A stretch of 64,000 nt of DNA from Desulfomonilia bacterium. Lineage in GTDB: Bacteria; Desulfobacterota; Desulfomonilia; UBA1062. The position numbers and the translations under genes are program-made. Every line of letters begins with the position of its first letter. Position 1 is the stretch's first letter. The stretch lies in NCBI GenBank assembly GCA_050014195.1, contig JBEKDT010000003.1:192001-256000 (forward strand), read 5' to 3'. Positions 44 through 15,051 of the stretch are shown here, piece by piece. The notes below the pieces were generated by a model. It was not told where the DNA came from. It saw nothing but the letters and a program-made list of their open reading frames with translations, and did no database searches.

Positions 44-191
44 ATTGCCCTCTCTAATAGAATATGACTCTATTGCTTGTCAAGGTAGTCTTTGGATAGG
101 CGCACCTAGAGCCGCCTTCACCTCTTAGGCTCGGTGAGTATCTCTGCTCAGATACAGACTCGGACGAGCGCGTCGCCTGAGAAGACTTTAT

Positions 192-590
192 CTAGCCGGG
201 AATGAACTTTATCAGGACCGACCTCTTCCTGGGACCGTCGAACTCGGCCAAAAAGATCCCTTGCCAGGTACCCAAGATCGGGGATCCGCTCTCGATGATC
301 ACCGTGACACTCGAACCAAGCAAACTGGCCTTGATGTGGGCATCCGAGTTCCCCTCGGCATGGCGGTATGCCTCATCGCGAGGCACGATTTTTCCAAGGA
401 ACGCAGTGATATCTTCCTTAACCGAGGGATCGGCATTTTCGTTGATGGTTATGCCGCATGTGGTATGCGGCACATAGATGACAAGGATGCCGGAAGATAT
501 ATCCTCACTTCTCAGCAAGGTCTTCACCTGGGTAGTGATGTCGATGAGCTGGATACGCGCGCTCGTTTGTACTTCAAGCCTCTTCATCAT
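192..590 (-). CDS. yjbQ: YjbQ/UPF0047 family protein (secondary thiamine-phosphate synthase-like)
   Basis: Motifs PHTTCGITINEN, HAEGNSDAHIKASL, LGTWQGIFLAEFDGPR; start moved to ATG 590 after AGGA. Confidence 0.9.
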   Translation of the reverse strand: MMKRLEVQTSARIQLIDITTQVKTLLRSEDISSGILVIYVPHTTCGITINENADPSVKEDITAFLGKIVPRDEAYRHAEGNSDAHIKASLLGSSVTVIIESGSPILGTWQGIFLAEFDGPRKRSVLIKFIPG

Positions 591-630
591 CTGATTCCTT
601 TGGTTCCTTTCCTCCTCGCTTATCAAGCCC

Positions 631-1419
631 TTATTCCTTCATAAAGTGCATGCCGCGCAGAAAGAGTTTTGTAAAGTTATCGGTGGTGAAGCGTGCCACC
701 TCTTCAGGAAAAACCCCTTTTATCCTTGCAATTTCTTCTATAACCTTTACTACATTAAGCGGTTCATTGCGTCTACCCCTCAACGGCTCGGGCGTAAGAT
801 ACGGCGCATCGGTTTCTGCCAGGATATATTCCAGAGATGTCTGTCTCGCCACTTCCTTTAACATGGCAGCGTTCTTGAAGGTGACCACGCCAGGGATGGA
901 GATAATGAATCCTTTGCTTAGAACAATTCGTGCAAGGTCGGCGTCTCCTGAAAAACAATGAAAAACCCCACCTGTTGACCATGCATCCGTTTCGTCCATG
1001 ACCTTTAATGTCTGGTCATGGGCGGCACGATCATGGATCACGAGCGGGAGGCGGAGTTGTTTTGCAAGCGCGATATGGGCTCTGAAGAGATCCTCTTGCT
1101 TTTGCTGGCTTTCGGGTGTGCGGTAAAGATCAAACCCTGTCTCTCCTATGGCAACAACCTTGGCCTCCTTACAGAGATCAGCGAGCTTGAATACATCTTC
1201 GGGTCCGAATTTATCGGCGTTTTGCGGGTGGATCCCCACAGACACAAAAATTCCTTTGTGGGATAGGGCAACCTCCAAGGCCTTTCTGCAGTCTTTGGGA
1301 TCGATCCCCACAGCGAGCATGGATGTAACACCTCCGTCAACCGATCGAGAGATGACCTCTTCCCTATCATGACGAAACGCCTTGAAATGGATGTGATTAT
1401 GTGAATCGACGATATTCAT
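631..1419 (-). CDS. tatD: TatD family DNase/hydrolase
   Basis: DSHNH, GIHP, AIGETGFD, IHDR, FHCFSG, ETDAPYLTP, RNEP motifs. Confidence 0.95.
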   Translation of the reverse strand: MNIVDSHNHIHFKAFRHDREEVISRSVDGGVTSMLAVGIDPKDCRKALEVALSHKGIFVSVGIHPQNADKFGPEDVFKLADLCKEAKVVAIGETGFDLYRTPESQQKQEDLFRAHIALAKQLRLPLVIHDRAAHDQTLKVMDETDAWSTGGVFHCFSGDADLARIVLSKGFIISIPGVVTFKNAAMLKEVARQTSLEYILAETDAPYLTPEPLRGRRNEPLNVVKVIEEIARIKGVFPEEVARFTTDNFTKLFLRGMHFMKE

Positions 1420-2173
1420 CCCACATACAACCTAAGAGCTCCTGATGCACTCTGGCATTGCTCGCCAGGATATCTCCCCTGTACAGGTCAAAGGGCCCCC
1501 CGTCAATGGAAGTGACCAAGCCGCCCGCTTCCTTGAGGATCGTCACACCTGCCGCCATATCCCACGGCTTCAACCCCTCCTCCCAAAAGGCATCGAACGC
1601 ACCCGATGCGACATAGCACAGATCGAGTTCCGCAGACCCAAACCTCCTGATCCCGAGAGCCTTACCCAAGACTCGCGAAAACCGCGATACGATCACCTCT
1701 AAGCTATCTTGTTTATAAGGAAAGCCCGTAGCAACGAGAGAATCGATTAAACATTCTGTTCGCGAAACAAAAATTCTCTGCCCGTTTCGATATGCCCCCC
1801 GTCCTTCCTGTGCGTGGAAGAGTTCTCCGCTGAGAGGATTGTAGCACACCCCGATAAAAGGCACGCCTGCCTTCATCACGGCAATGGAGACACAGAAAAA
1901 TGGTATGTGATGGATGAAATTTGTTGTCCCATCGATGGGGTCAATGATCCAGGTGTACAAGGAAGAACTCTTCTTATCAAAACCCTCTTCTGCAACGATG
2001 TTGTGGTCGCCATAGGCGCGCTCGATCTCGTCCACTATTACAGCCTGCACCTTGCGGTCCATATTGGTCACAAGATCGATCCGCCCCTTGTGTTCTATCT
2101 TTACCTCATCCCGGAGATGGGCATTAAGAAAGTCTCCCGCCTTTTTTGCAAGTCGCACGGCAAATTCCAGCAT
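1397..2173 (-). CDS. suhB: Inositol monophosphatase family protein
   Basis: DLVT, WIIDPIDGTTNF, RRFGSA, WDMAAG motifs; ATG 2173 follows GGAG. Confidence 0.92.
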   Translation of the reverse strand: MLEFAVRLAKKAGDFLNAHLRDEVKIEHKGRIDLVTNMDRKVQAVIVDEIERAYGDHNIVAEEGFDKKSSSLYTWIIDPIDGTTNFIHHIPFFCVSIAVMKAGVPFIGVCYNPLSGELFHAQEGRGAYRNGQRIFVSRTECLIDSLVATGFPYKQDSLEVIVSRFSRVLGKALGIRRFGSAELDLCYVASGAFDAFWEEGLKPWDMAAGVTILKEAGGLVTSIDGGPFDLYRGDILASNARVHQELLGCMWDEYRRFT

Positions 2174-2216
2174 GGCTCCACTTGTCAAACAAAAGATTTT
2201 ATGCAACATAAAAGAC

Positions 2217-2741
2217 ATGCAGCGGGTTTACAAGATAAAAAAAGCCCTCAAAGCGCCTATGTCGCTTGCCGTCATTATCTCCATCCCTGTTTTTATGGAT
2301 GTCATCCACCGAGGTTATGAAACAAAGATCCTTGTCATGGCCTGTTTGCTCATTGTTCTGTTTTATCTCTTCACCTTGAATAACCTCCTTAAACAAATAA
2401 AGGTGGGTGATGGTGAAATCATTATCAGGAGCCTGTTCGGATCAAACAGAATTCACGTCGCAGATATCAAACTCGTGGACGGCGTAATTATCGGCTCCCG
2501 CCAATTCATAACCATTTCGGCAAAAAAGAACTCCCTTATCCCGAATACCTTTGATGACTTCACCGGAATCATCGACTCCATCCGGGAGGTTGTGAAGGAA
2601 GAAGCCATAGGCAAGGGGCTGACAGACCTCAGAGGGAATGTTGTCAACCGCAAGAGCGATATCACCATGGCGTGGATCACGGTGATCCTCTTGATTATTA
2701 TTGTTGTTATCCGTTTCTTTCCACAGTTTCTTACATTGTGA
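2217..2741 (+). CDS. Small membrane protein, possibly with a bacterial PH-like domain
   Basis: Two N-terminal hydrophobic helices, beta-rich middle (IIIRSLFGSNRIHVADIKLV), C-terminal TM; divergent from suhB. Confidence 0.6.
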   Translation: MQRVYKIKKALKAPMSLAVIISIPVFMDVIHRGYETKILVMACLLIVLFYLFTLNNLLKQIKVGDGEIIIRSLFGSNRIHVADIKLVDGVIIGSRQFITISAKKNSLIPNTFDDFTGIIDSIREVVKEEAIGKGLTDLRGNVVNRKSDITMAWITVILLIIIVVIRFFPQFLTL

Positions 2742-2784
2742 TGCGCATTGGAAATATCAAACTTTTCAGTCAGTTATAAATCGA

Positions 2785-2800
2785 TATTCCCCGGGAAACG
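2785..2800. promoter_or_regulatory. Degenerate second parS-like site
   Basis: TATTCCCCGGGAAACG resembles TGTTCCACGTGAAACA, 16 bp upstream of the good parS. Confidence 0.4.
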
Positions 2801-2816
2801 CCCTTGGTTGCGGGTT

Positions 2817-2832
2817 TGTTTCACGTGAAACT
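2817..2832. promoter_or_regulatory. parS: parS centromere site
   Basis: TGTTTCACGTGAAACT, 15/16 match to the consensus TGTTTCACGTGAAACA, immediately upstream of parA. Confidence 0.9.
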
Positions 2833-2874
2833 TTTTCAATTCATCTTTCATAATTTTTATGGTACTGCTCCATT

Positions 2875-3669
2875 GTGCCTCATAAAATAATCAGCATCTC
2901 CAATCAAAAAGGCGGCGTTGGGAAGACAACCACTGCCATTAACCTTGGCTCGTCCCTTGCCCTTTTGGGGAAACGGACTCTCATTATTGACCTCGATCCC
3001 CAGGCTAACGCAACCACCGGCCTTGGGGTCGACCCCACAAAACTTTCTTCCCATATCTACCACGTCCTGCTTGGTGAACAGCCCATGGATTCCATCATCG
3101 TTCCCGCAAAGGTAGGCGGCCTTTTCCTTGCACCAAGCAATACCGACCTTGTTGGTGCTGATGTGGAACTCATGGATGTATCCATGCGCGAGCGGATAGT
3201 TTCCAAGGCGTTAAACACCATGGTTACTCCTTTTGACTTCATCCTCGTCGACTGTCCGCCGTCTCTCGGATTGCTCACCCTGAATGCCCTGACTGCTTCT
3301 GATACGCTCCTCATCCCTGTTCAGTGCGAATATTACGCACTGGAAGGCATCAAGAGCCTTCTGAATACATTCCAGCTTGTGAAAAAAAGGCTCAATCCCT
3401 TACTGTCCATTGAGGGATTTCTTCTCACCATGTTTGATTCCCGCACCCGCCTCAGCCATGAAGTGGCGAGCAACATGAGATCGCATTTCAACAATCAGGT
3501 TTTCAACACGGTTATACCCAGGAACACACGGTTATGTGAGGCCCCGAGTTTTGGGCTCCCCATTTGCCTCTATGATATCTCTTCAAAAGGGGCCCAACAT
3601 TATCTGATGCTTGCGAAAGAGATCCTGAGCAGGGAGGTTGCCGATGAAGGTAAAGCCTCGTCTCGGTAA
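2875..3669 (+). CDS. parA: Chromosome partitioning ATPase ParA/Soj
   Basis: NQKGGVGKTTT deviant Walker A, DLDPQANAT, DCPPSLGLLT, PVQCEYYALEG, EAPSFG. Confidence 0.96.
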   Translation: MPHKIISISNQKGGVGKTTTAINLGSSLALLGKRTLIIDLDPQANATTGLGVDPTKLSSHIYHVLLGEQPMDSIIVPAKVGGLFLAPSNTDLVGADVELMDVSMRERIVSKALNTMVTPFDFILVDCPPSLGLLTLNALTASDTLLIPVQCEYYALEGIKSLLNTFQLVKKRLNPLLSIEGFLLTMFDSRTRLSHEVASNMRSHFNNQVFNTVIPRNTRLCEAPSFGLPICLYDISSKGAQHYLMLAKEILSREVADEGKASSR

Positions 3670-4492
3670 GGGGATTGACGCGCTCATCCCTGTTGATGAA
3701 AATGATACAAGTTCACTGGTAATGGAGCTGTCTCTCGACGAGATACGGCCCAATCCCATTCAGCCAAGGAAATCTATTGATAAGGTAAAACTCTCGGAGC
3801 TTGCAGAATCCATCAAAGTCCATGGCCTCATATCCCCTATTCTTGTAAGGAAGTTCAATACCAAATACGAGATTATTGCAGGCGAGAGGAGATTTCATGC
3901 CTGCAGGCTGGCTGGAATGAAAAACGTTCCTGTTATTGTAAAAGAGGTTTCCGATGATAATTCCTTTAAGCTCTCCCTCATAGAGAATCTCCAGCGTGAA
4001 GATTTAAACCCCATGGAAGAGTCCGAGGCCTATTACACATTAAAGGAGCAGTTTGGTCTTACCCATCAGGTGATTGCAGAATCCGTAATGAAGGATCGGT
4101 CAACCATCACCAATGCACTTCGGCTGATAAGTCTTCCTGAGGATATGAAGTCTGCATTGCGTGAAGGATCCATTACCCCGGGGCATGCACGCGCCATCCT
4201 TATGCTGGAGTCGGAAGAAGAGAGACGTTCTCTCTTTAAAAATATCATTGCTAAGGGATTAAGTGTTCGAGATGCCGAGCGGCATGCCTCTCGGAAGCGA
4301 CTTGTTCAAGATAACAAAAAGAACATTGACCCGAGTCTGGACAAACTATCATCCTTCCTCTCCGATCGTTTCTCTACAAAAGTTGTTTGCTCGTGGTCGA
4401 AGAGAAAGGGAAAGATTACCATAGAGGTATCATCTCGAGATGAGCTCAAAAGAATTATCGATGATCTCACCAGGGCGATATCTCCTCTATGA
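3644..4492 (+). CDS. parB: Chromosome partitioning protein ParB/Spo0J
   Basis: LGKGIDALI N-terminus, PNPIQPRK, IIAGERR, ENLQREDLNPMEE, HTH; GGAGG before ATG 3644. Confidence 0.96.
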   Translation: MKVKPRLGKGIDALIPVDENDTSSLVMELSLDEIRPNPIQPRKSIDKVKLSELAESIKVHGLISPILVRKFNTKYEIIAGERRFHACRLAGMKNVPVIVKEVSDDNSFKLSLIENLQREDLNPMEESEAYYTLKEQFGLTHQVIAESVMKDRSTITNALRLISLPEDMKSALREGSITPGHARAILMLESEEERRSLFKNIIAKGLSVRDAERHASRKRLVQDNKKNIDPSLDKLSSFLSDRFSTKVVCSWSKRKGKITIEVSSRDELKRIIDDLTRAISPL

Positions 4493-4666
4493 TGGCACCA
4501 TTGTGAACATATGGACATTGGATTGTGACATGATCTTTCGATATGAGAGTTATCAACGTACATACGATATGTGTATGTTTAATAAAATTAAAAAGTTATA
4601 TGATTTTTTGACATATTGACAGGATCATTAGTATATATAATCCATACATATGAGGAGTATAAAGAG

Positions 4667-5791
4667 ATGAAGTGTACAATCTCAAAAAGCATTCTGCAGA
4701 ACATGCTCTCGAAGGTGCAGGGTTTCACGGAACGAAAATCCACCTTGCCTATCTTGAGCCATGCCCTCCTAGAGGTATCGAAGGGATCTTTATTCATAAA
4801 GGCAACGGATCTGCATACCTCGATCCAGGTGTCGTCTAACTGCTCTGTGGAATCTCCCGGTTCATGCGCCATTAATGCAAAAGGCTTTTACGATATCATC
4901 CGGGAACTCCCTGAAGATAATCTTCTCATATGGACCGAAGATCATAACCGGGCCAACATTTTGGTGGGGAATAAGAAGATAAAAATGAATATCATGGATG
5001 CAGAGGAATTCCCGAACATCGACCTGCCGGCCAATCCAACCGGATTTTCCATACCAATAGATGTCATGAAGCCGCTGATAGACAGAACCATTTTTTCCAT
5101 ACCTGTCTCTGCGGAGAGCGACACGAAATATTCTTTAGGAGGGGCATTGCTTCTCGCCAGGGAAGAAAAACCTAAAACCACCTATATTGAGATGGTAACC
5201 ACCGACAGCAGAAGGCTCTCGCTGGCCAGATATGTTGTTAATGGAAAGCTTGATATGGGGGAAGGGATCATCGTTCCGAGAAAAGGACTGCAAGAGCTTA
5301 AACGTCTCATGGATGGGAAGGAGGACGAACAACACATCGTCTTGACAAAGGATTCCCTTTACTACACATCCAAGGAAACAACCGCCACGGTGCGGCTCTT
5401 TGACGGCAAATTCCCGGATTTCAGGAGTATTGTAAATATAGACACATATCCAATCGTGACGAGGGTCAATGTGAATGAGCTTGTCAGCGTACTCAAGGTA
5501 TGCGTCGCCATGGTTTCCGAGCTTGCAAGCTGTGTGAAATTCTCGTTTATCAAGGACAAGACCCTAATCTATGCCAATAATCCTGAACAGGGAGAGGTGG
5601 ATACGGCAATCGCATCCGAACATACCGGAGACGAGGTCGAGATAACCTTCAACCCGAGGTATTTCGTCGAGTGCCTTGCCTTCATCGATGGTGAGGCGGA
5701 GATCCACCTGAAAGGGCCCCAAGGTCCCTGCTTGGTTACGGACTGTGCCGAGCGGGAAAGCAAGTGGGTCATCATGCCCATGAGGTTTTAA
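4667..5791 (+). CDS. dnaN: DNA polymerase III beta sliding clamp
   Basis: STLPILS, ATDL, TTDSRRL, GKFPDFR, FNPRYF, VIMPMR C-terminus; start ATG 4667 after GAGGAG. Confidence 0.95.
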   Translation: MKCTISKSILQNMLSKVQGFTERKSTLPILSHALLEVSKGSLFIKATDLHTSIQVSSNCSVESPGSCAINAKGFYDIIRELPEDNLLIWTEDHNRANILVGNKKIKMNIMDAEEFPNIDLPANPTGFSIPIDVMKPLIDRTIFSIPVSAESDTKYSLGGALLLAREEKPKTTYIEMVTTDSRRLSLARYVVNGKLDMGEGIIVPRKGLQELKRLMDGKEDEQHIVLTKDSLYYTSKETTATVRLFDGKFPDFRSIVNIDTYPIVTRVNVNELVSVLKVCVAMVSELASCVKFSFIKDKTLIYANNPEQGEVDTAIASEHTGDEVEITFNPRYFVECLAFIDGEAEIHLKGPQGPCLVTDCAERESKWVIMPMRF

Positions 5792-8210: not shown

Positions 8211-10637
8211 ATGAGTACGAACACCGTTGCCATAGACCAGGAGATGAGGCGCTCGTACCTGGACTATTCCATGAGCGTCATCATCGGACGCGCCATCCCT
8301 GATGTGCGCGACGGCCTTAAGCCCGTCCATAGAAGGATCCTGTTTGCCATGCAGGACCTGGGCAACACCCATACGAAGGCCTACAAGAAGTCGGCCCGCA
8401 TCGTGGGTGATGTCATTGGTAAGTACCATCCCCACGGTGACTCCGCAGTCTATGATGCCATTGTCCGCATGGCCCAGCCGTTCTCCTTGCGGTATCCCCT
8501 GGTCGACGGCCAGGGCAACTTCGGTTCCGTGGATGGCGATCCGGCCGCTGCCATGAGGTATACCGAGATCAGGATGTCGCGCATAGCCGAGGAGATGCTC
8601 GCTGATCTTGAAAAGAATACCGTGGATTTCCATCCCAACTACGACGAGTCTCTGCAGGAGCCCGATGTACTGCCCACGAGGATACCGGGGCTGCTGCTGA
8701 ACGGGTCTAGCGGTATCGCGGTGGGCATGGCCACCAGCATCCCGCCGCACAATGCCACCGAGCTGATGACCGCCCTGATCGCCCTAATCGACAAACCTGA
8801 TCTGACACTGCCCGAGATCATGCGGATCATCCCCGGGCCTGATTTCCCCACCGGCGGCATCATCATCTCCGAAGGCGAGATCGAGAAGGCCTACCGCACC
8901 GGCAGGGGCATCATCATTGTCCGCGGCAAGGTGGAAAGGGAGGAAGAGCAGAACCGGGAGAAGATCATCATCTCCGAGATCCCCTTTACCGTGAACAAGG
9001 CCGATCTCGTCACGCGCATCGCTCTCCTGGCCCAGGAAAAGAAGATCGACGGCATTGCCAACATCCGCGACGAGTCGGACAAGGACGGCATGCGCGTGGT
9101 CATCGAGCTGAAGAAGGGGGCTCCCGCCGAGGTCATCGAAAACCAGCTCTACAAGCTCACCACGCTCCAGGCCTCGTTCTCCATGAACCTGCTCGCCATA
9201 CACAACAACAGGCCCGCCACCATGGGTCTTTTACAGCTGCTTCAGGCCTTCCTTGATTTCCGCGAGGAGGTGGTCACCCGCAGGTGCCTCTTCGAACTGG
9301 CCAAGGCAAAGGACCGCATCCATATCTTGGACGGCCTCTTGAAGGCGTTAGAGCACATCGACGAGATCGTGGCGCTCATCAAGGCATCGGCCAACCCGCC
9401 TGAGGCAAAGATAAACCTGATGGAGCGCTTCGGCTTCTCCGAGATCCAGGCCCAGGCCATCTTGGACATGCGTCTCCAGAGGCTCACCGGACTGGAGCGA
9501 GACAAGCTTGCCGACGAGCACGCGGCACTTTCCAAAGAGATCAGGCGACTCGAGCTCATCCTTTCCGACCGCAATGAGCTGCTCAAGGTCATCAGGGCAG
9601 AGCTCCAAGAGGTCAAGGCCGACTACGCGGACGCCAGGCGGACCATGATCCTGAAGGGTGAGATCGGCGAATTCAACGTGGAAGACCTCATCCCCGATGA
9701 GAAGATGGTGGTCACCATCACCCGCAAGGGTTATGTGAAGCGCACCGAGCTCGACAAGTACCGCACCCAGAAGCGCGGCGGTGTGGGCGTCAAGGGGGCG
9801 TTGACCGGTGAGGACGACTTCATCGAGCACATCTTCGTGGCCACCAACCACACCTCCATCCTCTACTTCACCAACAAGGGCAGGGTGTACCACACCAAGG
9901 TATACGAGGTCCCGGAGCGCGACCGCGCGCTCAAGGGCGTGCCCATCGTGAACATTCGCCCCATCCAGAAGGAGGAGCGCATCTGCGCCATCCTGGTCAC
10001 CACCGACATCAACATGGAAGCCGAGGTCGTGATGGTAACCGCCATGGCCAACATCAAACGGGTCGAGCTCAAAAGCTTCAGCAACATCGTGCGCACGGGC
10101 ATCATCGCCTGCACGCTGGAGCCGGGCGACGAGGTCATGTCGGCCCGCATCACCACCGGCAGCACCCGCATCATCGTTGCATCCAGGGCCGGCAAGGCCA
10201 TCATCTTCCCGGCCGACCAGGTCCGAGTCATGGGCCGCCAGGCGCAAGGGGTGCGAGCCATCAAGCTCAATGAGGGCGATTCGGTTATCGGCATGGATGT
10301 CATCACGAGCGACGACGACCTGGTCATCAATCTGACCGAGTACGGCTTCGGCAAGAAGACTATTGTCAGCAAATACCCGGTCCAGAACCGAGCAGGCAAG
10401 GGTGTAAATACGGTCCACATCACCAAGAAGACCGGCGACCTCGTGGGGGTGAGGGTGATCAAGGACACCGACGAGCTCATGATCATATCCACGTCGGGCC
10501 AGATCATCCGCATGCCCGTGTCCCAGATCCGCACCACCCGCACGCGCTCTGCCCAGGGCGTGCGCGCCATACGCATGAAGGAAGACGAGAAGATCGTGGA
10601 CTTCACCAAGTACGTCAGCGAAGAAGACGCCGACTAA
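8211..10637 (+). CDS. gyrA: DNA gyrase subunit A
   Basis: [26 protein letters not shown] catalytic Tyr, GyrA-box QKRGGVG, beta-pinwheel repeats. Confidence 0.98.
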
Positions 10638-10673
10638 ACGGCGCTCATCACGAGAGATAACCTTAAGATAAAT

Positions 10674-10697
10674 CCCGGCCTCCGAAAGGGGGCCGGG
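10674..10697 (+). terminator. GC-rich hairpin after gyrA, possible terminator
   Basis: CCCGGCCTCC-GAAA-GGGGGCCGGG; no clear U-tract on + strand. Confidence 0.55.
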
Positions 10698-10726
10698 CAA
10701 GAAATAACCCGCAGATTCATAACTCT

Positions 10727-10753
10727 GTCATTCCCGCGAAAGTGGGAATCCAG
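10727..10753 (+). repeat. REP/dRS3-like palindrome
   Basis: GTCATTCCCGCGAAAGTGGGAATCCAG matches the ATTCCC-N8-GGGAAT / GTCATTCCCGCGAAAGCGGGAATCCA repeat pattern. Confidence 0.75.
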
Positions 10754-10838
10754 GAAAGTGAAGGTGTTATTTTTGCGCTTGATGGAGAGTCTAAGATTTA
10801 TCTATCTTTTTAATTTTATGTCCTTTCTTTTGGTGCCA

Positions 10839-10913
10839 CAATTCGGCAGGATAGCCGAATTAGACGCACTTTACGTGCGCCCGAAGGGCGAAGGCCAGGG
10901 ATGGCCTGAGTCA
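10839..10913 (+). mobile_element. 75-nt four-hairpin mini-element, copy 1
   Basis: Removing it restores the perfect stem TCCTTTCTTTTGG/CCAAAAGAAAGGA. Confidence 0.75.
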
Positions 10914-10993
10914 AAAGAAAGGACCGAAGAAAAGGCACCCCGTGAACCCGCCCTTCGGGTCCGTTCGCTCGCTTGGAAAATCCGGGCCGCGGA

Positions 10994-11070
10994 TAAATTT
11001 CTTCAGGATAGAAGAAATTGACGCACCGAAGGTGCGCCCAAAGGGTGAGGGACAAGGATGTCCCGAATCA
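10994..11070 (+). mobile_element. 77-nt four-hairpin mini-element, copy 2
   Basis: Same hairpin architecture as copy 1; absent at the equivalent position of element copy B. Confidence 0.7.
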
Positions 11071-11198
11071 AACTCGCTTCGTTTCACTTCGCTCAAACAA
11101 GAGACGCTTTCCCCTGGATTTTGCTTCACTCGCTCACCGGGGTCAAAGGGGATCAAAAAGGCAAAAACACGATCTGGACAGGATTGGCAGGGAAGGGG

Positions 11199-11318
11199 AT
11201 ATCCGGAATGGAATATAAAAAGAATAATGCCTTGCACTCAATATCCGGATATACTGCAATTGTGCATCGGATAACTATAGTGATATCCTGCAAAAGTACA
11301 GTATAGTAATTGTTATGT
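11199..11318 (+). other. Putative integron attI-like site
   Basis: ATATCCGGA at 11199 and 11241 plus GATATCC at 11282, ending in core site GTTATGT (11312-11318) 22 nt before the first cargo gene. Confidence 0.45.
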
Positions 11319-11340
11319 GTTTCAGAAAGGGTAAAGACCC

Positions 11341-12456
11341 ATGAAAGCTGTTATTTTAAAACCTGTTATGTGGAATGAAAACGAGTATATCAGTCCCTCT
11401 GGCTATCCAAGTACGAGCGGTTTCGCAAATGCATTCGGATATGGACATGAGGAATGGAATAATAGCCAAAGGCGCATCTGGCGAAGCTATAAGGTCTTTC
11501 ATACTGAATCAACGGATAAATTATTGCAGTACTCTGCCACAGGAGAGCTCGCTATTGTTACAACTGCCTCCTTAAATAGAGCGCAATACGCCATTAGCAT
11601 TGCCACAAACGTCTTTGACAATAATGCAGATGAGCGTAAAATAATAGCGAAAGAGCTTAATGTATATAATGATTGGGTAGAAGTTTGGTCAATTGACAGG
11701 GTTAAGCAGTGTTTCAATAATAATCAACAGCGTTTTCTTGAGCATTGGCAAAGTAACTACGAGTGGATAAGATGGAAATGCCCAATATCTCAATATCACC
11801 ACTTCAATAGACCTGTACTCCTTAACCCTTCATCAATATCTGGTAAGGCTCGTCTCACTTCAATGCATGGTAGATTCCAGGCTATTTATCCAGAGCAATG
11901 TTTGCAAATTATCGGCAGCTACTTACCTGAAAATCATCCCATTTGCGAGTGGCTCTCGAGCAGGGATTTTGATGAGGAAATTATCTCAAAGACTATAAAG
12001 AACTTCCGTTCAACTCATAATATCAGATTGCCTCGTAGTAGGAGTGGATCAAATGCTCCTGCTATAAGGGCATATCAGTATTGGGTGGAAGGAAATCGGA
12101 GCGTAGAACCTCATCATGCGCTCCTACAGGCGAAGTTTGTAAACTACCTGACCTCGAATGCATTATCATATCAAGAAAACATTGATTACATTGACGTCAA
12201 ATACCAGCTAAACGGAATAGATGTTTTAGTAGAAATCAAACCTACTGATAAGATTCAGACCAAGTACGCTATACGCATTGCGATAGGGCAGCTACTTGAG
12301 TATAGATACATAATGAATAGTCAAGCGATTCTTGAGATAGTCCTTGGAAGTAAACCTAGAGATGAAGAGATAGCTTTCGTTAATTCATTAGGAATTTACT
12401 TAACCTACTTGGATTCAAATAGCGGCGATTTTATACGTGCTGGTACTGTCACATAA
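11341..12456 (+). CDS. Hypothetical protein with C-terminal PD-(D/E)xK-like nuclease domain; candidate defence protein
   Basis: C-terminal YIDV...VEIK...AIGQLLEY motif; N-terminal WNENEY..PSG...GYGHEEW domain not recognised; AT-rich relative to flanks. Confidence 0.7.
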   Translation: MKAVILKPVMWNENEYISPSGYPSTSGFANAFGYGHEEWNNSQRRIWRSYKVFHTESTDKLLQYSATGELAIVTTASLNRAQYAISIATNVFDNNADERKIIAKELNVYNDWVEVWSIDRVKQCFNNNQQRFLEHWQSNYEWIRWKCPISQYHHFNRPVLLNPSSISGKARLTSMHGRFQAIYPEQCLQIIGSYLPENHPICEWLSSRDFDEEIISKTIKNFRSTHNIRLPRSRSGSNAPAIRAYQYWVEGNRSVEPHHALLQAKFVNYLTSNALSYQENIDYIDVKYQLNGIDVLVEIKPTDKIQTKYAIRIAIGQLLEYRYIMNSQAILEIVLGSKPRDEEIAFVNSLGIYLTYLDSNSGDFIRAGTVT

Positions 12457-12479
12457 CCATGGCATGCAGGCCGTTGGCA
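12450..12479 (+). other. Truncated attC-like site between the two cargo genes
   Basis: CACATAAC (contains the TAA stop)-CATGGCATGCAG-GCC-GTTGGCA; CACATAAC is the exact reverse complement of GTTATGTG at 11312. Confidence 0.6.
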
Positions 12480-12498
12480 ATAAACAAAGAGTATCCAT

Positions 12499-13377
12499 AT
12501 GAATGTATTTATAAGCTGGTCAGGCGAAGAAAGTAAAGCATATGCAGAGGTATTTCGACAATGGTTGCCTAAAATAATACAGGCCTGCGATCCATTTTAT
12601 TCACCTGAAGACATTAAAGCAGGAATGCGATGGAGTGCAGAAATTGCTGGTAAGCTGCAAGAGACAGAGATTGGCATTCTTTGCCTTACAAGGGATAATC
12701 TTAATGCTCCCTGGTTGATGTTTGAAGCAGGTGCTTTGTCTAAACAACTAGAATCAAGAGTGTGTCCCATTTTGTTCGGTTTAAGTCCAGCGGATATTCA
12801 GGGACCGTTGACTCAATTTCAATTAAATAAGTTTTGTCCCGATGGCGTATATAGAGTACTTTCATCAATAAACGATCTGTCAAAGCCAAATCGGTTATCT
12901 TCGGAGGTTTTAAAAGACTCATTTGACAAATGGTGGCCTGATCTTGACTCAAGTATATCAAAAGCCACACCAATAGTTAGTTCTCCAAGCATAGCCTCTT
13001 TACGAAGTGAACGTGACCTAATTGAAGAAATACTAATCCGAATCAGAAACAGTACCGTCGAGTCACCTATTGATCCAGCCATGGTCAGTATGTTGATAAG
13101 TTGTTTTGGTCGTCTCGCAGATACGCCCCGCTATATAGCAGATTCCAAGAAACAGGAAACGGCATCACACGCACTTTATCATTTTCAGCTCCCAATTCAA
13201 CACCTCATTACACGAATTATCGATACGCACAAACGCCATGAAATGGCTCAAGCTTATGCAGAGGCAATTAATGTTTTCTATAATGGCTCTGTTGATAAAG
13301 ATAAACTCATTGAAAATTTAACGAATCCTTCACATGGCCTGATTACAAGTGCTCCAATCATCCATAAGGCAGATTAA
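12499..13377 (+). CDS. TIR-domain protein with unrecognised C-terminal region
   Basis: VFISWSG, DIKAGMRW, GILCLT, PWLMFEAGAL (putative catalytic Glu), VCPILF, PLTQFQ. Confidence 0.88.
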   Translation: MNVFISWSGEESKAYAEVFRQWLPKIIQACDPFYSPEDIKAGMRWSAEIAGKLQETEIGILCLTRDNLNAPWLMFEAGALSKQLESRVCPILFGLSPADIQGPLTQFQLNKFCPDGVYRVLSSINDLSKPNRLSSEVLKDSFDKWWPDLDSSISKATPIVSSPSIASLRSERDLIEEILIRIRNSTVESPIDPAMVSMLISCFGRLADTPRYIADSKKQETASHALYHFQLPIQHLITRIIDTHKRHEMAQAYAEAINVFYNGSVDKDKLIENLTNPSHGLITSAPIIHKAD

Positions 13378-13441
13378 AATTACAGACCATATTTTTTAAA
13401 AGCGGGCGGATGGCCTGGAAAAGATATAAATCTATGGGTGG

Positions 13442-13471
13442 CACGGGCGAAGCCCGAAGGGCTTGCCCGTG
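13442..13471. repeat. REP-like palindrome
   Basis: CACGGGC(G)AAGCCC-GAA-GGGCTTGCCCGTG preceded by GGGTGG. Confidence 0.6.
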
Positions 13472-13510
13472 GGACATAGTAATAGTTAACGCCTTGCTTT
13501 TACTGCTCAG

Positions 13511-13773
13511 GTTTTTTTAGCCCCCCTCGAAACAGGCGAGGAGCGCAGGGAAAATCCGTAAAGAAGCAAGCCCATGTTTGATGCGATACATCCATGTATC
13601 GCACCCTGACGGGCGCACGTAAAGTGCGTCCAATTCTGCTATCCCTGCAGAATTGTGAGCGAAGCGAGTTGGCTTGCTTTAAGGATTTTCCCGAGCACCG
13701 CAGCGGACCCCGAAGGGGCTGTTTCGTTGGGTGCCTTTTCTTTGGTGACTTTCTTTGCACAAAAAGAAAGTAA
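13511..13773 (-). repeat. Structured non-coding element, copy B (inverted relative to A; one nested mini-element)
   Basis: Long-range stems CGAAACAG/CTGTTTCG, GGGAAAATCC/GGATTTTCCC, GCAAGCC/GGCTTGC and terminal hairpin ACTTTCTTT/AAAGAAAGT. Confidence 0.8.
13579..13655 (-). mobile_element. 77-nt four-hairpin mini-element, copy 3
   Basis: Interrupts CTTCGCTCA^AACA, which is intact in copy A. Confidence 0.75.
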
Positions 13774-14242
13774 CAATGTAAGCAAATATGAATGCCCAAA
13801 TCTAACCCTCAGTTACTAAAGATTTAATCACGGTAAATCATTTTAAGAATATTAATTATTATCTCCATTAAAACAGCAATACCACTAATAACATTATAGC
13901 TAATTTAACTAGATAAATCAATTAACAAGAGCTTTACCTCTCAAAAAAGGGCATGTCGATAAAGTATTGAAGGTAGACCTAAGACGATTCCTAACTCAAG
14001 AAAATAATTGTTGGATTCATGCACGGTTTAATAACAATAAGTAACATATTGATTATATGATCATAGTTGCTATTATGGAATGCATGCATCTTTGAGGGTA
14101 ATCTATTTAAATAGAAATGTAGTGAAAGTAATTATGCCCTGTTTCATCTGAATAATTAATAAGGTGATATTGCAGGGACAGACTCCTGGACAAACGAAAG
14201 GTATTCTTATATATGTTGGTTAACCCGACACAAGGTGATCTC

Positions 14243-14821
14243 ATGGATAAGCGGAATGCATTTTCATCAAATCATGTTGCCAAGGCGTTGAATATTGAGC
14301 CGGAGAGGCTGCGTCAATGGATAAGGCTTGGGTTTGTCACGCCGAATACCCCGGCGAAAGGCCAGGGCAGCCGGGGGATCTTTACGCGTGGAGATGTCTA
14401 CTCTGTGGAACTTTTCAGGCGGCTTTTGGACTTGGGAATAGCGAGATCGTTCGCGGCATCGCTCTCCCGGGTGTACTCTGTCCCCCGTAGATATTTTAGC
14501 CTCAGCGAGGAGACGGGACGGCCCATTGAAAAATCTAAAGAAGATGATGCTTCTGAAGAGAGTTTGATTGAGGCCGGGGATATCCTCTGCATCGTCTTTC
14601 ACAATGATCCGAAGTTCCCGGAAGTCAAGCTGTTGACCCCGACCGCGATCCTGGCTGTTGTTGGGACCAAGATCCTGAAAAAGGAGCAGAGGGAAAAAAC
14701 AACTTTCGAGGACCTGATTTCCTCGAAGAGGGATCTGCTCGGCAAGGGAGAGTGGACGCGCATGCTCGCTGTGAACTTGAAAAAATTGCGTGATGAGATC
14801 GATGCAGGATTGCCGGACTAA
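14243..14821 (+). CDS. MerR-like/excisionase-like HTH DNA-binding protein
   Basis: N-terminal FSSNHVAKALNIEPERLRQWIRLGFVTP...RGIFTRGDV winged HTH; C-terminal part unrecognised. Confidence 0.7.
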   Translation: MDKRNAFSSNHVAKALNIEPERLRQWIRLGFVTPNTPAKGQGSRGIFTRGDVYSVELFRRLLDLGIARSFAASLSRVYSVPRRYFSLSEETGRPIEKSKEDDASEESLIEAGDILCIVFHNDPKFPEVKLLTPTAILAVVGTKILKKEQREKTTFEDLISSKRDLLGKGEWTRMLAVNLKKLRDEIDAGLPD

Positions 14822-15051
14822 GGATTACGGGAGGATATTTTTTGATTATTGCCGTCATCCCGGCATTAGGCATGCAATCTATCCGGACCTTTTAAATATT
14901 TGCAGTGACGGCGAAATGACTGGTGGCAAATTTTTCTTACAAAGCCAGGTATAATCTGCGATTCCGCTCGATTTCTTTGATGAAAAAAAGGCAGATCTTT
15001 TTTCTGTGCATGCAAGTGAATCTCTTTTATATGAAGAATTGCCGTCTGTCT

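Follow-up and report, generated by a model that had tools for sequence, protein, structure and literature searches.

A family of 75-nt four-hairpin units, nested in other repeats and dispersed across bacterial phyla

Small non-autonomous repeats shape bacterial intergenic regions, and both their movers and their functions are mostly obscure. The locus described here raises this question in a compact form: what are three short, hairpin-rich units, each of which occupies a site that is empty in a second copy of the same surrounding repeat, and by what process did they come to lie there? The DNA analyzed (the window) is a stretch of 64,000 nucleotides from a Desulfomonilia bacterium (GCA_050014195.1, contig JBEKDT010000003.1, positions 192,001 to 256,000), in which the units had been noticed in an initial annotation made from the sequence without database searches. 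We consider it somewhat better than an even chance (a probability of about 0.55) that the copies in the window belong to a large and so far uncatalogued family of mobile elements, 75 nt in length, which are neither coding nor autonomous. The units form a family with a common fold, they are precisely gained or lost between close relatives, they nest in other elements and are spread across phyla, and they have left fossil copies in Escherichia coli. Searches of the literature returned no description of this element.

Three units in an inverted pair of host repeats

All three copies described in the initial annotation were found (Table 1). Their limits according to the covariance model (10838-10914 and 10995-11071 on the plus strand, 13578-13656 on the minus strand) compare with 10839-10913, 10994-11070, and 13655-13579 in that annotation. 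The mean column identity of the three copies is 79%, and their folding z scores range from -4.9 to -6.6, with none of 200 shuffled sequences folding equally well on either strand. The claim that the units have no terminal inverted repeats is correct: a repeat search finds no terminal inverted pair within the unit, and the 5' ACAATTC shares only 3 of 7 bases with the reverse complement of the 3' end (TTGACTC or GTGACTC).

Table 1. Position and properties of the units and of the surrounding features in the window.
Feature	Position	Strand	Length	Description	Model score
Unit copy 1	10838..10912	+	75 nt	ACAATTC...GAGTC; in the left-end 13-bp hairpin of host repeat a	98.4 bits
Unit copy 2	10995..11069	+		AAATTTC...GAATC subfamily; site 2 of host repeat a	94.4 bits
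Unit copy 3	13580..13656	-	77 nt	Site 3 of the right-hand, inverted copy of host repeat a	78.6 bits
Host repeat a, left copy	10816..11155 (approximate)	+	~190 nt without units	Long imperfect hairpin element
Host repeat a, right copy, inverted	13515..13797 (approximate)	-		Sites 1 and 2 empty, site 3 filled
Low-GC two-gene cargo between the inverted host repeats	11341..13377	+		GC 0.40-0.42

The repeat that carries the units (host a) has paralogues on four other contigs of the same genome (C6, C15, C16, and C28) in addition to the right-hand copy in the window, and orthologues of the left copy that have no units occur in three congeners (G002, G003, and G004). Three different insertion sites are used within host a. 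The cargo between the two host copies consists of two ORFs, one of 371 aa that matches no family and one of 292 aa with a TIR domain (Pfam TIR_2, 5.8e-8; PADLOC TIR-TM, 6.3e-66), and at the orthologous locus of G003 and G002 the cargo differs.

The possibility that the likeness of the copies is a matter of chance, or of the general look of GC-rich hairpins, can be regarded as refuted. The 24 full copies found in the genome of the window (G000) have nhmmer E-values between 4e-23 and 1.5e-12, while the next match has 0.005, and their covariation lies above that of all 500 shuffles and all slid controls.

Fold and distribution of the units

The strand of the unit folds into a 9-bp hairpin (H1) followed directly by a gap-free four-way junction, which is composed of a 2-bp closing helix (GA/UC), H2, H3 (CCC/GGG), and H4. 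A Y-R pair, revealed by mutual information (T-A in 45, C-G in 44, and C-A in 2 of 99 copies), extends H4, as do two conserved G/A oppositions, which we read as tandem G.A pairs. The loops of H1 (AGGAYA) and H4 (NGGA) are invariant or nearly so in the 24 copies of G000 as well as in 99 distinct copies from several phyla. An earlier version of the structure, with GAC/GUC as the closing helix and a G-Y pair closing H3, was replaced when mutual information gave the Y-R pair and a C-G pair. An outer stem enclosing the unit was likewise rejected as a part of it, as such a stem accompanies 8 of the 99 copies as compared to 5% in controls; the stem that surrounds many copies is part of another host repeat (host b).

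The compensatory changes that the initial annotation had named in individual stems are borne out by the 24 copies of G000, in which 96.6% of 623 cells pair and 14 of 26 pairs show compensatory change, a result equaled in none of 500 shuffles. The same proportion of cells (96.6% of 2521) pairs in the 99 copies, where compensatory change concerns 24 of the 26 pairs; again, no shuffle of 500 equals the covariation, and slid controls pair in 25-46%. The stems thus covary across phyla, while loops and junction bases are fixed, in agreement with the description of the element as structure-defined. Conservation of the GA/GA internal loop and of the GGA loops is confined to one strand. Wobble pairs favor the modeled strand by only 58 to 30, in an alignment that had been fitted to the model. 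A self-cleaving ribozyme, considered in view of the unit boundary after GUC, was rejected: inspection by eye finds no hammerhead core, and there is no match to a ribozyme family of Rfam. A search of window positions 9500-15000 against Rfam with E-values up to 10 gave 13 matches, all far below the gathering scores and none to RF01731; on the units themselves, CsrC alone was returned (15.5 bits vs. a gathering score of 61).

The covariance-model search across genomes that the initial annotation had proposed uncovered further copies in several phyla. Their distribution is patchy: units occur in 10 of 41 relatives, with 5 of 14 other genomes carrying them within the genus (1 to 28 copies each), and in 9 of 150 other genomes of the phylum. 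G015 has 71 copies, and G013, a genome that is 76% complete, has 19. A Mariprofundus isolate (Zetaproteobacteria) and one genome each of the Ectothiorhodospiraceae, Desulfovibrionaceae, and Syntrophaceae contain 23-29 copies each, with 26 in the Mariprofundus isolate, which is cultured. No matches were found in viral contigs (pattern search), plasmids, or phages.

The nesting of units in other structured elements, proposed for the window, holds for the whole genome, since none of the 24 copies in G000 stands outside another repeat or a repeated segment: 9 are in host a, 11 in host b, 2 in a MITE with terminal inverted repeats (host c), and one each in a MITE-like flank and in a repeated segment of 1.4 kb. 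Outside G000, group II introns contain or adjoin units, and a remnant of a 5S gene harbors one. In several genomes one or two units reside in host c, an ordinary MITE with inverted ends of about 20 bp and TA flanks. Head-to-tail arrays with a period of 74-76 nt are formed as well, the longest comprising five units in a row in one relative. Genes flanking the units are unrelated housekeeping genes, with transposases accounting for 3 of 130, and no gene recurs as a neighbor among the 130 flanking ORFs of 78 loci. The single 5S gene of G000 is 31 kb from the nearest unit, and only one unit locus of this genome is near a tRNA.

Filled and empty sites

The reciprocal empty sites reported in the initial annotation are real in the two host copies of the window, and they recur at the orthologous locus of the three congeners. 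At site 1, the filled sequence of G000 differs from the empty orthologues of G003, G004, and G002 by 75 nt, with a 2-nt (CA) ambiguity of the junction, and at site 2 the difference from the same three orthologues is 76 nt. At site 3, the filled copy and the empty G003 orthologue differ by 77 nt, with an ambiguity of TG (CA in the sense of the unit). The right host copy of G003 shows the opposite state, with site 1 filled and site 3 empty. No target-site duplication is present at these orthologous filled/empty pairs. The removal of copy 1 does restore the perfect 13-bp stem that had been predicted, GTCCTTTCTTTTG-GTGC-CAAAAGAAAGGAC, which is the form carried by G003 and G004, and G002 retains a 13-bp stem at this site with one compensated change. 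As for the proposed targets, CCA^AAAG (site 1) and TCA^AAC (site 3) match the orthologous empty sites, while GGA^AACT (site 2) is inexact: the junction in G000 consists of GCGGAT, the unit, and AAACTCGC, and the empty site of G003 reads GCGTCTAACTCGC.

In total, four presence/absence differences are found within the locus of the window, between genomes whose flanks are about 95% identical. At one more locus (on contig C24), the unit is present in G000 and the site is empty in G002 and G003. Together with the many unrelated contexts in several phyla, these differences support the mobility suggested for the units, in the sense of precise gain or loss.

The junctions are not fully uniform, as differences of 76 and 78 nt occur too, and in host b, and perhaps also in the 5S remnant, the base after the unit differs from that of the empty form. 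Among 99 non-tandem copies, 62 are preceded by C and 29 by G. Of 116 copies, 30 have a downstream flank that runs on into the beginning of the unit for 3-8 nt, and a continuation of 3-5 nt in the upstream flank is seen in only 6. In metagenome contigs from four runs, the units are covered by short repeat-family contigs only; one contig joint skips positions 10993-11070 with three other letters in between, and its source locus is ambiguous.

These data have to be weighed against the idea that the unit cannot move by itself and has long been an internal part of a few composite repeats (hosts a and b and the MITE, host c). Its presence or absence would then result only from deletions between short repeats and from gene conversion between paralogous host copies. 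The residence of every G000 copy in a repeat or repeated segment agrees with this idea, as does the presence of one or two units in an ordinary MITE of several genomes. The same sub-family of units occupies the same host site in different host copies, and one apparently empty allele is actually a deletion between 11-nt direct repeats. Moreover, every documented recent gain or loss sits in a repeat with filled paralogues, and therefore short-patch gene conversion could give the same pattern; some of the turnover could be due to conversion between host repeats. However, the contexts are highly varied: they include three sites in host a, hosts b and c, group II introns, a 5S remnant, tRNAs, and tmRNA, and 127 of the 130 neighbors are not transposases. 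The unit boundaries are identical in all of these contexts, and the host backbone of G000 around sites 1 and 2 is closest to the G003 orthologue and not to the filled paralogues. Three congeners are empty where G000 is filled, and therefore a gain is the shorter history. We regard an immobile module as an unlikely account.

If the units are mobile elements, a unit would enter whole, between C or G and A, without inverted ends or target duplication, often inside other hairpin-forming repeats, and would build head-to-tail arrays. The moving form would be a folded single strand, more likely of DNA than of RNA, recognized by its structure and copied or pasted with a polarity that leaves the 5' start sharp and the 3' end ragged, similar to reactions of the HUH type (IS200/IS605, IS91, rolling-circle). 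The enzyme would be supplied in trans. Where units follow each other in tandem, the modeled H1 and closing helix form a continuous stack, in which one A bulges out at the point where two units meet. We tentatively put forward, as a less probable reading, a new class of mini-mobile elements, in which a strand composed of a hairpin and a Holliday-like junction would be amplified from a circular or tandem template in a polar reaction akin to rolling-circle replication and would insert at the single bulged A. Its enzyme would be unrecognized or a housekeeping one, common to Desulfobacterota, Zetaproteobacteria, and Gammaproteobacteria; its GGA loops may turn each insertion into a docking site for CsrA, and the E. 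coli rrnB T1-T2 spacer would be its fossil. If so, the element rewires post-transcriptional control while spreading.

Function, movers and known classes of elements

The GGA loops of H1 and H4 fit, by their sequence, putative CsrA sites, and they bring in another explanation, in which the unit is foremost a functional RNA module (a two-site CsrA docking platform, a 3'-UTR stabilizer, or a processing signal). Selection on the RNA would then keep the fold, while the DNA would spread only as a passenger of repeats and by recombination. The H4 apex ACA-NGGA-UGU and the H1 loop C-AGGAYA-G match the CsrA consensus obtained by SELEX, RUACARGGAUGU with GGA in a hairpin loop (PMC4347634). The conserved G/A oppositions below a loop of the AYGGAY type recall the TwoAYGGAY motif, which has tandem G.A pairs below an AYGGAY loop and for which binding of CsrA has been proposed (PMC4333381). 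G000 has a gene for CsrA. In 37 of 56 cases, the neighboring gene on the 5' side runs in the same direction as the unit, at a median distance of 122 nt, and the units of low-copy genomes follow tRNA, tmRNA, or 5S genes. However, the remaining 19 of the 56 copies face away from the upstream gene, as do about 7 of 18 loci in G000 according to crude ORF calls, and the copies in the E. coli rrn operons lie behind T1, a terminator described as strong. The four-way junction exceeds what CsrA sites need, and precise 75-nt indels in many unrelated contexts would still demand an insertion process. An RNA role as the primary nature of the unit is in our opinion improbable.

The initial annotation had also proposed phylogenetic profiling for a mobilizing enzyme; no such gene was found, and the two candidates profiled do not track the unit. 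The Y1 transposase (PF01797) is encoded in 33 of 41 relatives, with or without the unit, and G013 (19 copies, 76% complete) lacks it. The IS200-type element resident in G000 has unrelated ends, and the model finds nothing there above 7.2 bits. The integron integrase (TIGR02249) exceeds the cut-off in 11 of 41 relatives and stays below it in G000 (100% complete), G015, and G023. Integron attC sites have the R''/R' core consensus RYYYAAC ... GTTRRRY; inspection of the unit ends by eye revealed no GTTRRRY.

Compared with known classes of elements, the unit is not a MITE derived from a DDE transposase, as it has neither the terminal inverted repeats nor the target-site duplication of this class. 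It shares more traits with the PATEs of the IS200/IS605 family and with HUH transposons (IS91, rolling-circle), namely the lack of inverted ends and of target duplication, a strand-specific fold, head-to-tail arrays, a sharp start, and a ragged end. Hairpins stand at both ends of a PATE, and the unit has H1 at its 5' end and H4 near its 3' end. PATEs insert 3' of a conserved tetra- or pentanucleotide similar to the cleavage site at their right end; the motif before the unit (YCA) may likewise resemble the unit's 3' end (TCA), with only one flank position constrained. With the boundary shifted by one base, the flank is (C/G)A and the end of the element is TCA. In contrast to PATEs, no cognate TnpA was found for the unit, its left hairpin begins at the very boundary, and two extra internal hairpins form a four-way junction. 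The left hairpin of IS608 is located about 19 nt inside that element. In G000, where the GC skew is very weak (median absolute value of only 0.018), the 24 copies divide into 8 on the G-rich strand and 16 on the opposite one, and no clear replication-strand bias was seen.

Small dispersed repeats (SDRs), described in cyanobacteria by Elhai et al. in 2008 (Genome Res 18:1484; cited in PMC3116915, ref. 43), are said to be likewise very small, without transposase, inverted ends, or target duplication, to nest in other repeats, and to appear as precise indels between relatives. They occur in other lineages and are reportedly mostly shorter and without a conserved multi-hairpin junction. REP, BIME, and REPIN sequences, associated with RAYT transposases, resemble the unit in being intergenic, hairpin-forming, clustered (in tandem or alternating, e.g., at Mariprofundaceae loci), and patchily distributed between species. 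REPs are regarded as species-specific and consist of a conserved 5' tetranucleotide of the GTAG type and a single imperfect palindrome, while the unit has no GTAG-type tag, has four hairpins, and is conserved across phyla. No association with RAYT was found, weak Y1_Tnp matches occurring both with and without the unit. With the CsrB/Rsm sponge RNAs and the TwoAYGGAY motif (RF01731), the unit shares an AYGGAY-type loop over tandem G.A pairs, the presence of two GGA loops in each unit, and an occurrence in tandem; it differs from them in having no Rfam match, in being dispersed and nested instead of forming a single sRNA gene, and in having no framing promoter or terminator.

The closest look at a known sequence is offered by E. 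coli. The initial annotation had pointed to a likeness to the spacer between T1 and T2 of rrnB, presumably known until now as hairpins of a terminator region, and this likeness holds when tested. A direct model search of the trailer stretches, combined with BLAST, located copies in the T1-T2 spacers of rrnA, rrnB, and rrnD, which match the cross-phylum model, built without E. coli data, over its full length (positions 1-77) and in all helices, with 46.2 bits (E 3.4e-11); under the own-genome model, the rrnB spacer reaches 37.2 bits. In these trailers, the unit sits within a duplicated 3' end of the 5S gene, which it interrupts, and once the unit is removed, the trailer aligns to the 3' end of 5S rRNA with a score of 48 vs. 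a shuffle maximum of 35. E. coli K-12 has three copies of the unit and one degenerate copy behind proK, and 3984 of 5426 complete E. coli genomes have a match, at 1-9 places each. No paper treating the rrnB spacer as a mobile element was found.

The sequence and fold of the family are conserved across phyla, filled and empty sites form clean pairs between 95%-identical genomes, a carrier is in culture (the Mariprofundus isolate), and fossil copies exist in the best-studied bacterium; therefore, both the mover and the recruitment of CsrA are directly testable. The E. coli copies differ from the family elsewhere in that all of them follow stable-RNA genes and form a constant component of the trailers in which they reside. 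They agree with it in the fold into four hairpins in equal order, the ACAA start and AA end, the unpaired bases UUG-AAC-G after H1 and GCCCGnAGGGYG, and the GGA loops. The T1-T2 spacers of E. coli rrnA, rrnB, and rrnD are fossil copies of the unit family, and the rrnB T1T2 cassette, which is presumably present in many cloning vectors and laboratory plasmids, is more than two terminators.

Fold of the unit

The three copies flagged in the window by the initial annotation are present at the positions listed in the table; they can be aligned over ~77 nt with a mean column identity of 79%, and on folding each gives a z-score between -4.9 and -6.6, none of 200 shuffles being equal. A profile run against the entire assembly of the window genome, G000 (4.2 Mb in 29 contigs, the window being positions 192001-256000 of contig C3), found 24 full copies with E values of 4e-23 to 1.5e-12, the next match following only at E 0.005, and a covariance model recovered the identical set. 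All 24 copies, including two head-to-tail pairs, are intergenic by crude ORF calling. The four hairpins (H1-H4) proposed from the initial three copies are borne out on these 24, with pairing in 96.6% of 623 cells (slid controls: 22-43%) and compensatory changes in 14 of 26 pairs, a level reached by none of 500 shuffles.

Scanning a single genome for each species with a pattern yielded 79 stretches, of which 78 were searched with the model (L043, overlapping L034 on the same contig, was excluded); the 106 copies obtained include 99 distinct ones. When mutual information was computed for every pair of columns, a C-G pair closing H2 and a Y-R pair immediately outside H4 (T-A in 45, C-G in 44, T-G in three and C-A in two of the 99 copies) emerged in addition to the known stems. 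In the refined fold, 96.6% of 2521 cells are paired and changes are compensatory in 24 of 26 pairs (394 cells), which none of 500 shuffles matches, although fitting of the alignment to the model biases its pair counts towards the latter. The conserved G/A oppositions that extend H4 may be read as two sheared G.A pairs. Since no unpaired base remains where the four helices following H1 meet, these would form a perfect four-way junction. In arrays, only one A lies between the last base of a closing helix and the base pair with which the following H1 opens; judging from the structure and from the junction sequences, this would be an A bulged from a continuous helix. Only one of the strands has the GA/GA and GGA loops, and thus one single strand, of DNA or RNA, appears to be the form under constraint. 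The excess of G.T over A.C pairs (58 vs. 30) is weak and model-biased.

Features of the unit, its hosts and its genomic surroundings
Feature	Position	Strand	Description
Unit copy	window 10838-10912	+	
Unit copy	window 10995-11069	+	
Unit copy	window 13580-13656	-	
Cargo	window 11341-13377; also L163 / L164		between inverted repeat-a pair
Short repeat	window 10727-10755		GTCATTCCCGCGAAAGTGGGAATCCAGG, type ATTCCC-n8-GGGAAT
GC-rich hairpin repeat	window 13441-13476		GGCACGGGCGAAGCCCGAAGGGCTTGCCCGTGGGACA
H1			9 bp, loop A-GGA-Y-A (refined fold)
Closing helix			2 bp, G-A / U-C (refined fold)
H2			5 bp (refined fold)
H3			CCC/GGG (refined fold)
H4			6 bp, NGGA loop; extended by G/A oppositions and Y-R pair (refined fold)
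Repeat a			host of 9 of 24 G000 copies
Repeat b			host of 11 of 24 G000 copies; CCCCTCaCCC-n3-CCCTCTCCC-loop-GGGAGAGGG
Repeat c	G000 contig C4 ~100840-101140 (L004); L048, L050, L062, L067, L088, L089, L104, L106, L108		host of 2 of 24 G000 copies
c-like flank			beside 1 of 24 G000 copies
1.4-kb repeated segment			host of 1 of 24 G000 copies
Palindrome	G000 contig C23 7550-7611		perfect, 27 bp
Units inside or adjoining group II introns	L143 1535-1608, L144 1487-1560 (G064); L148 (G115)		
E. coli rrnB unit	NC_000913 4171838-4171913		between T1 and T2
Degenerate fourth E. coli unit	NC_000913 3708464-3708558 (L152 565-659)	-	hairpin 2 enlarged; tRNA-Pro proK lies 58 nt upstream (K-12); 24.9 bits

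Filled and empty sites in host repeats

Repeat a, ~190 nt long without units, stands in the window as two copies inverted around a two-gene cargo downstream of gyrA. The reciprocal empty sites described in the initial annotation are there: the left repeat is filled at sites 1 and 2 and the right one at site 3, with the counterparts empty. The orthologous locus was found in four congeners, one of which, G003, is ~95% identical to G000 in the flanks. Sites 1 and 2 of the left repeat are both empty in the aligned orthologues of G002, G003 and G004. The empty form of site 1 joins ...CTTTCTTTTGGTGC directly to CAAAAGAAAGG, G000 being longer by exactly 75 nt, with no duplication and with a boundary ambiguous by two bases, CA; the 13-bp stem expected on removal of this copy is seen in the congeners. 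The filled/empty difference is 76 nt at site 2 and 77 nt at site 3 (empty in G003, with the same CA ambiguity), while at site 1 of the right-hand repeat a unit is present in G003 and absent in G000 (78 nt), which makes four presence/absence differences at this locus. On contig C24, a repeat b carries a unit in G000 and none in G002 and G003. At a C21 locus, the seemingly empty allele still has 11 nt from the beginning of the unit and represents a deletion between direct repeats of 11 nt.

Every such filled/empty site lies in a repeat with filled paralogues, so short-patch gene conversion is a serious alternative explanation of the recent gains and losses. Long conversion tracts, however, are argued against by the G000 backbone between sites 1 and 2, which is closest to that of the G003 orthologue and reads GGACC where the paralogues have GTCACC. 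The unit is a genuine, structured mini-element that is gained and lost precisely.

The cargo itself differs among congeners: a 371-aa ORF of unknown kind and a TIR-domain ORF (PADLOC TIR-TM, 6.3e-66) in G000, a DUF4145 protein in G003 and other small ORFs in G002. The repeat-a-bracketed locus resembles a defence hot spot prone to swapping. Copies similar to the short repeat preceding the left repeat a lie ahead of repeats a on contigs C15 and C16, and its bin has a metagenome word depth of 108-5379 vs. ~4-8 in adjacent bins. The GC-rich hairpin repeat, also found beside repeats a on C16 and C28, is conserved in G003 and likewise elevated in metagenome depth.

Repeat b occurs without a unit in at least 15 copies in G000. 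Repeat c, common to several Desulfobacterota lineages, is an ordinary MITE with inverted ends of ~20 bp (TTCCATTTCTCAATCAAAG ... CTTTGATTGAGAAATGGAA) and TA flanks, with a single unit or two units inside it in several genomes. The C23 palindrome consists of the left arm of repeat b and H1 only, which suggests back-copying of one half onto itself.

For analysis of the flanks, 130 copies were collected, 125 of them with full flanks and 99 of these non-tandem. Among the latter, the unit is preceded by C in 62 and by G in 29, with no further target consensus apparent and no general enclosing stem (8/99 vs. 5% with shuffled partners). The last paired C is followed by A in ~90% of copies, then by A or C. 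In 30 of 116 copies, the first 3-8 nt of the 3' flank repeat the start of the unit, and in eight true tandems at least 12 nt do so; agreement of the 5' flank with the end of the unit, over 3-5 nt, is confined to 6 of the 116. These counts are suggestive only, since copies of one host descent were counted repeatedly. Arrays with a period of 74-76 nt occur in many genomes, with up to five consecutive units in one relative. The sharp start and ragged end would be consistent with copying or pasting in a polar manner.

Distribution and the E. coli rrn trailers

The unit occurs in 10 of 41 relatives, G000 included: in 5 of 14 other genomes of the genus (1, 5, 10, 19 and 28 copies), in 4 of 10 genomes of other genera of the family (up to 71 copies) and in none of 16 genomes of the second family of the class. 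In an even phylum sample, 150 other genomes included nine carriers, with 1-16 copies each. Records with the unit are labelled Desulfomonilia, Syntrophaceae, Desulfobulbia, Desulfobacterales, Desulfovibrionaceae, Zetaproteobacteria/Mariprofundus, with one cultured isolate, and Ectothiorhodospiraceae. In four of these genomes the copy number is 23-29. The unit was not found in the viral contigs, plasmids or phages searched.

Genes beside units are unrelated housekeeping genes, with transposases in 3 of 130 cases. Units also lie 110 nt behind tRNA genes, 510 nt behind tmRNA and at group II introns; G064 has two identical intron copies, each with a unit whose overlap with the Rfam group-II-D1D4-3 match is ~20 nt. 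One Mariprofundaceae genome has the same cluster of 4-5 diverged units in alternating orientation at four loci (L049, L073, L083 and L092), much like BIME-type mosaics.

The likeness to the spacer between terminators T1 and T2 of E. coli rrnB, noted in the initial annotation, proved correct on NC_000913: the stretch folds into the four hairpins and is matched at full length by the own-genome model with 37.2 bits. A second model, built solely from the 106 cross-phylum copies, scores the rrnA, rrnB and rrnD trailers at 46.2 bits (E 3.4e-11). Without its unit, the rrnB trailer reads GAGTAGG followed by CTGCCAGGCATCAAAT... and aligns (score 48 vs. a shuffle maximum of 35) with the 5S gene's 3' end and trailer, indicating that the unit interrupts, between G and A, a duplicated segment of 5S end plus terminator. 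Among complete E. coli genomes, 3984 of 5426 have a match, at 1-9 places each.

Possible movement and relation to known elements

No mobilising enzyme was found among the candidates examined. A Y1 transposase is present in 33 of 41 relatives regardless of the unit, the ends of the IS200-type element of G000 differ from those of the unit, and scores above the cut-off for an integron integrase were obtained in 11 of 41 relatives, G000 not being one of them. GC skew in G000 is too weak for reading a replication-strand bias. From its anatomy, we infer that the unit may move as a single strand that is recognised by its structure and processed much as by HUH enzymes, the protein acting in trans.

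Both the H4 apex, ACA-NGGA-UGU, and the H1 loop agree with the CsrA consensus, given in PMC4347634 as RUACARGGAUGU with GGA in a hairpin loop, and CsrA is encoded in G000. An AYGGAY loop above putative tandem G.A pairs is reminiscent of the TwoAYGGAY motif, for which PMC4333381 mentions proposed CsrA binding. The upstream gene is co-directional with the unit in 37 of 56 cases, a mild bias among copies that are not independent.

Rfam holds no family matching the unit, and literature searches returned no published description of it. The unit belongs among the small non-autonomous repeats.
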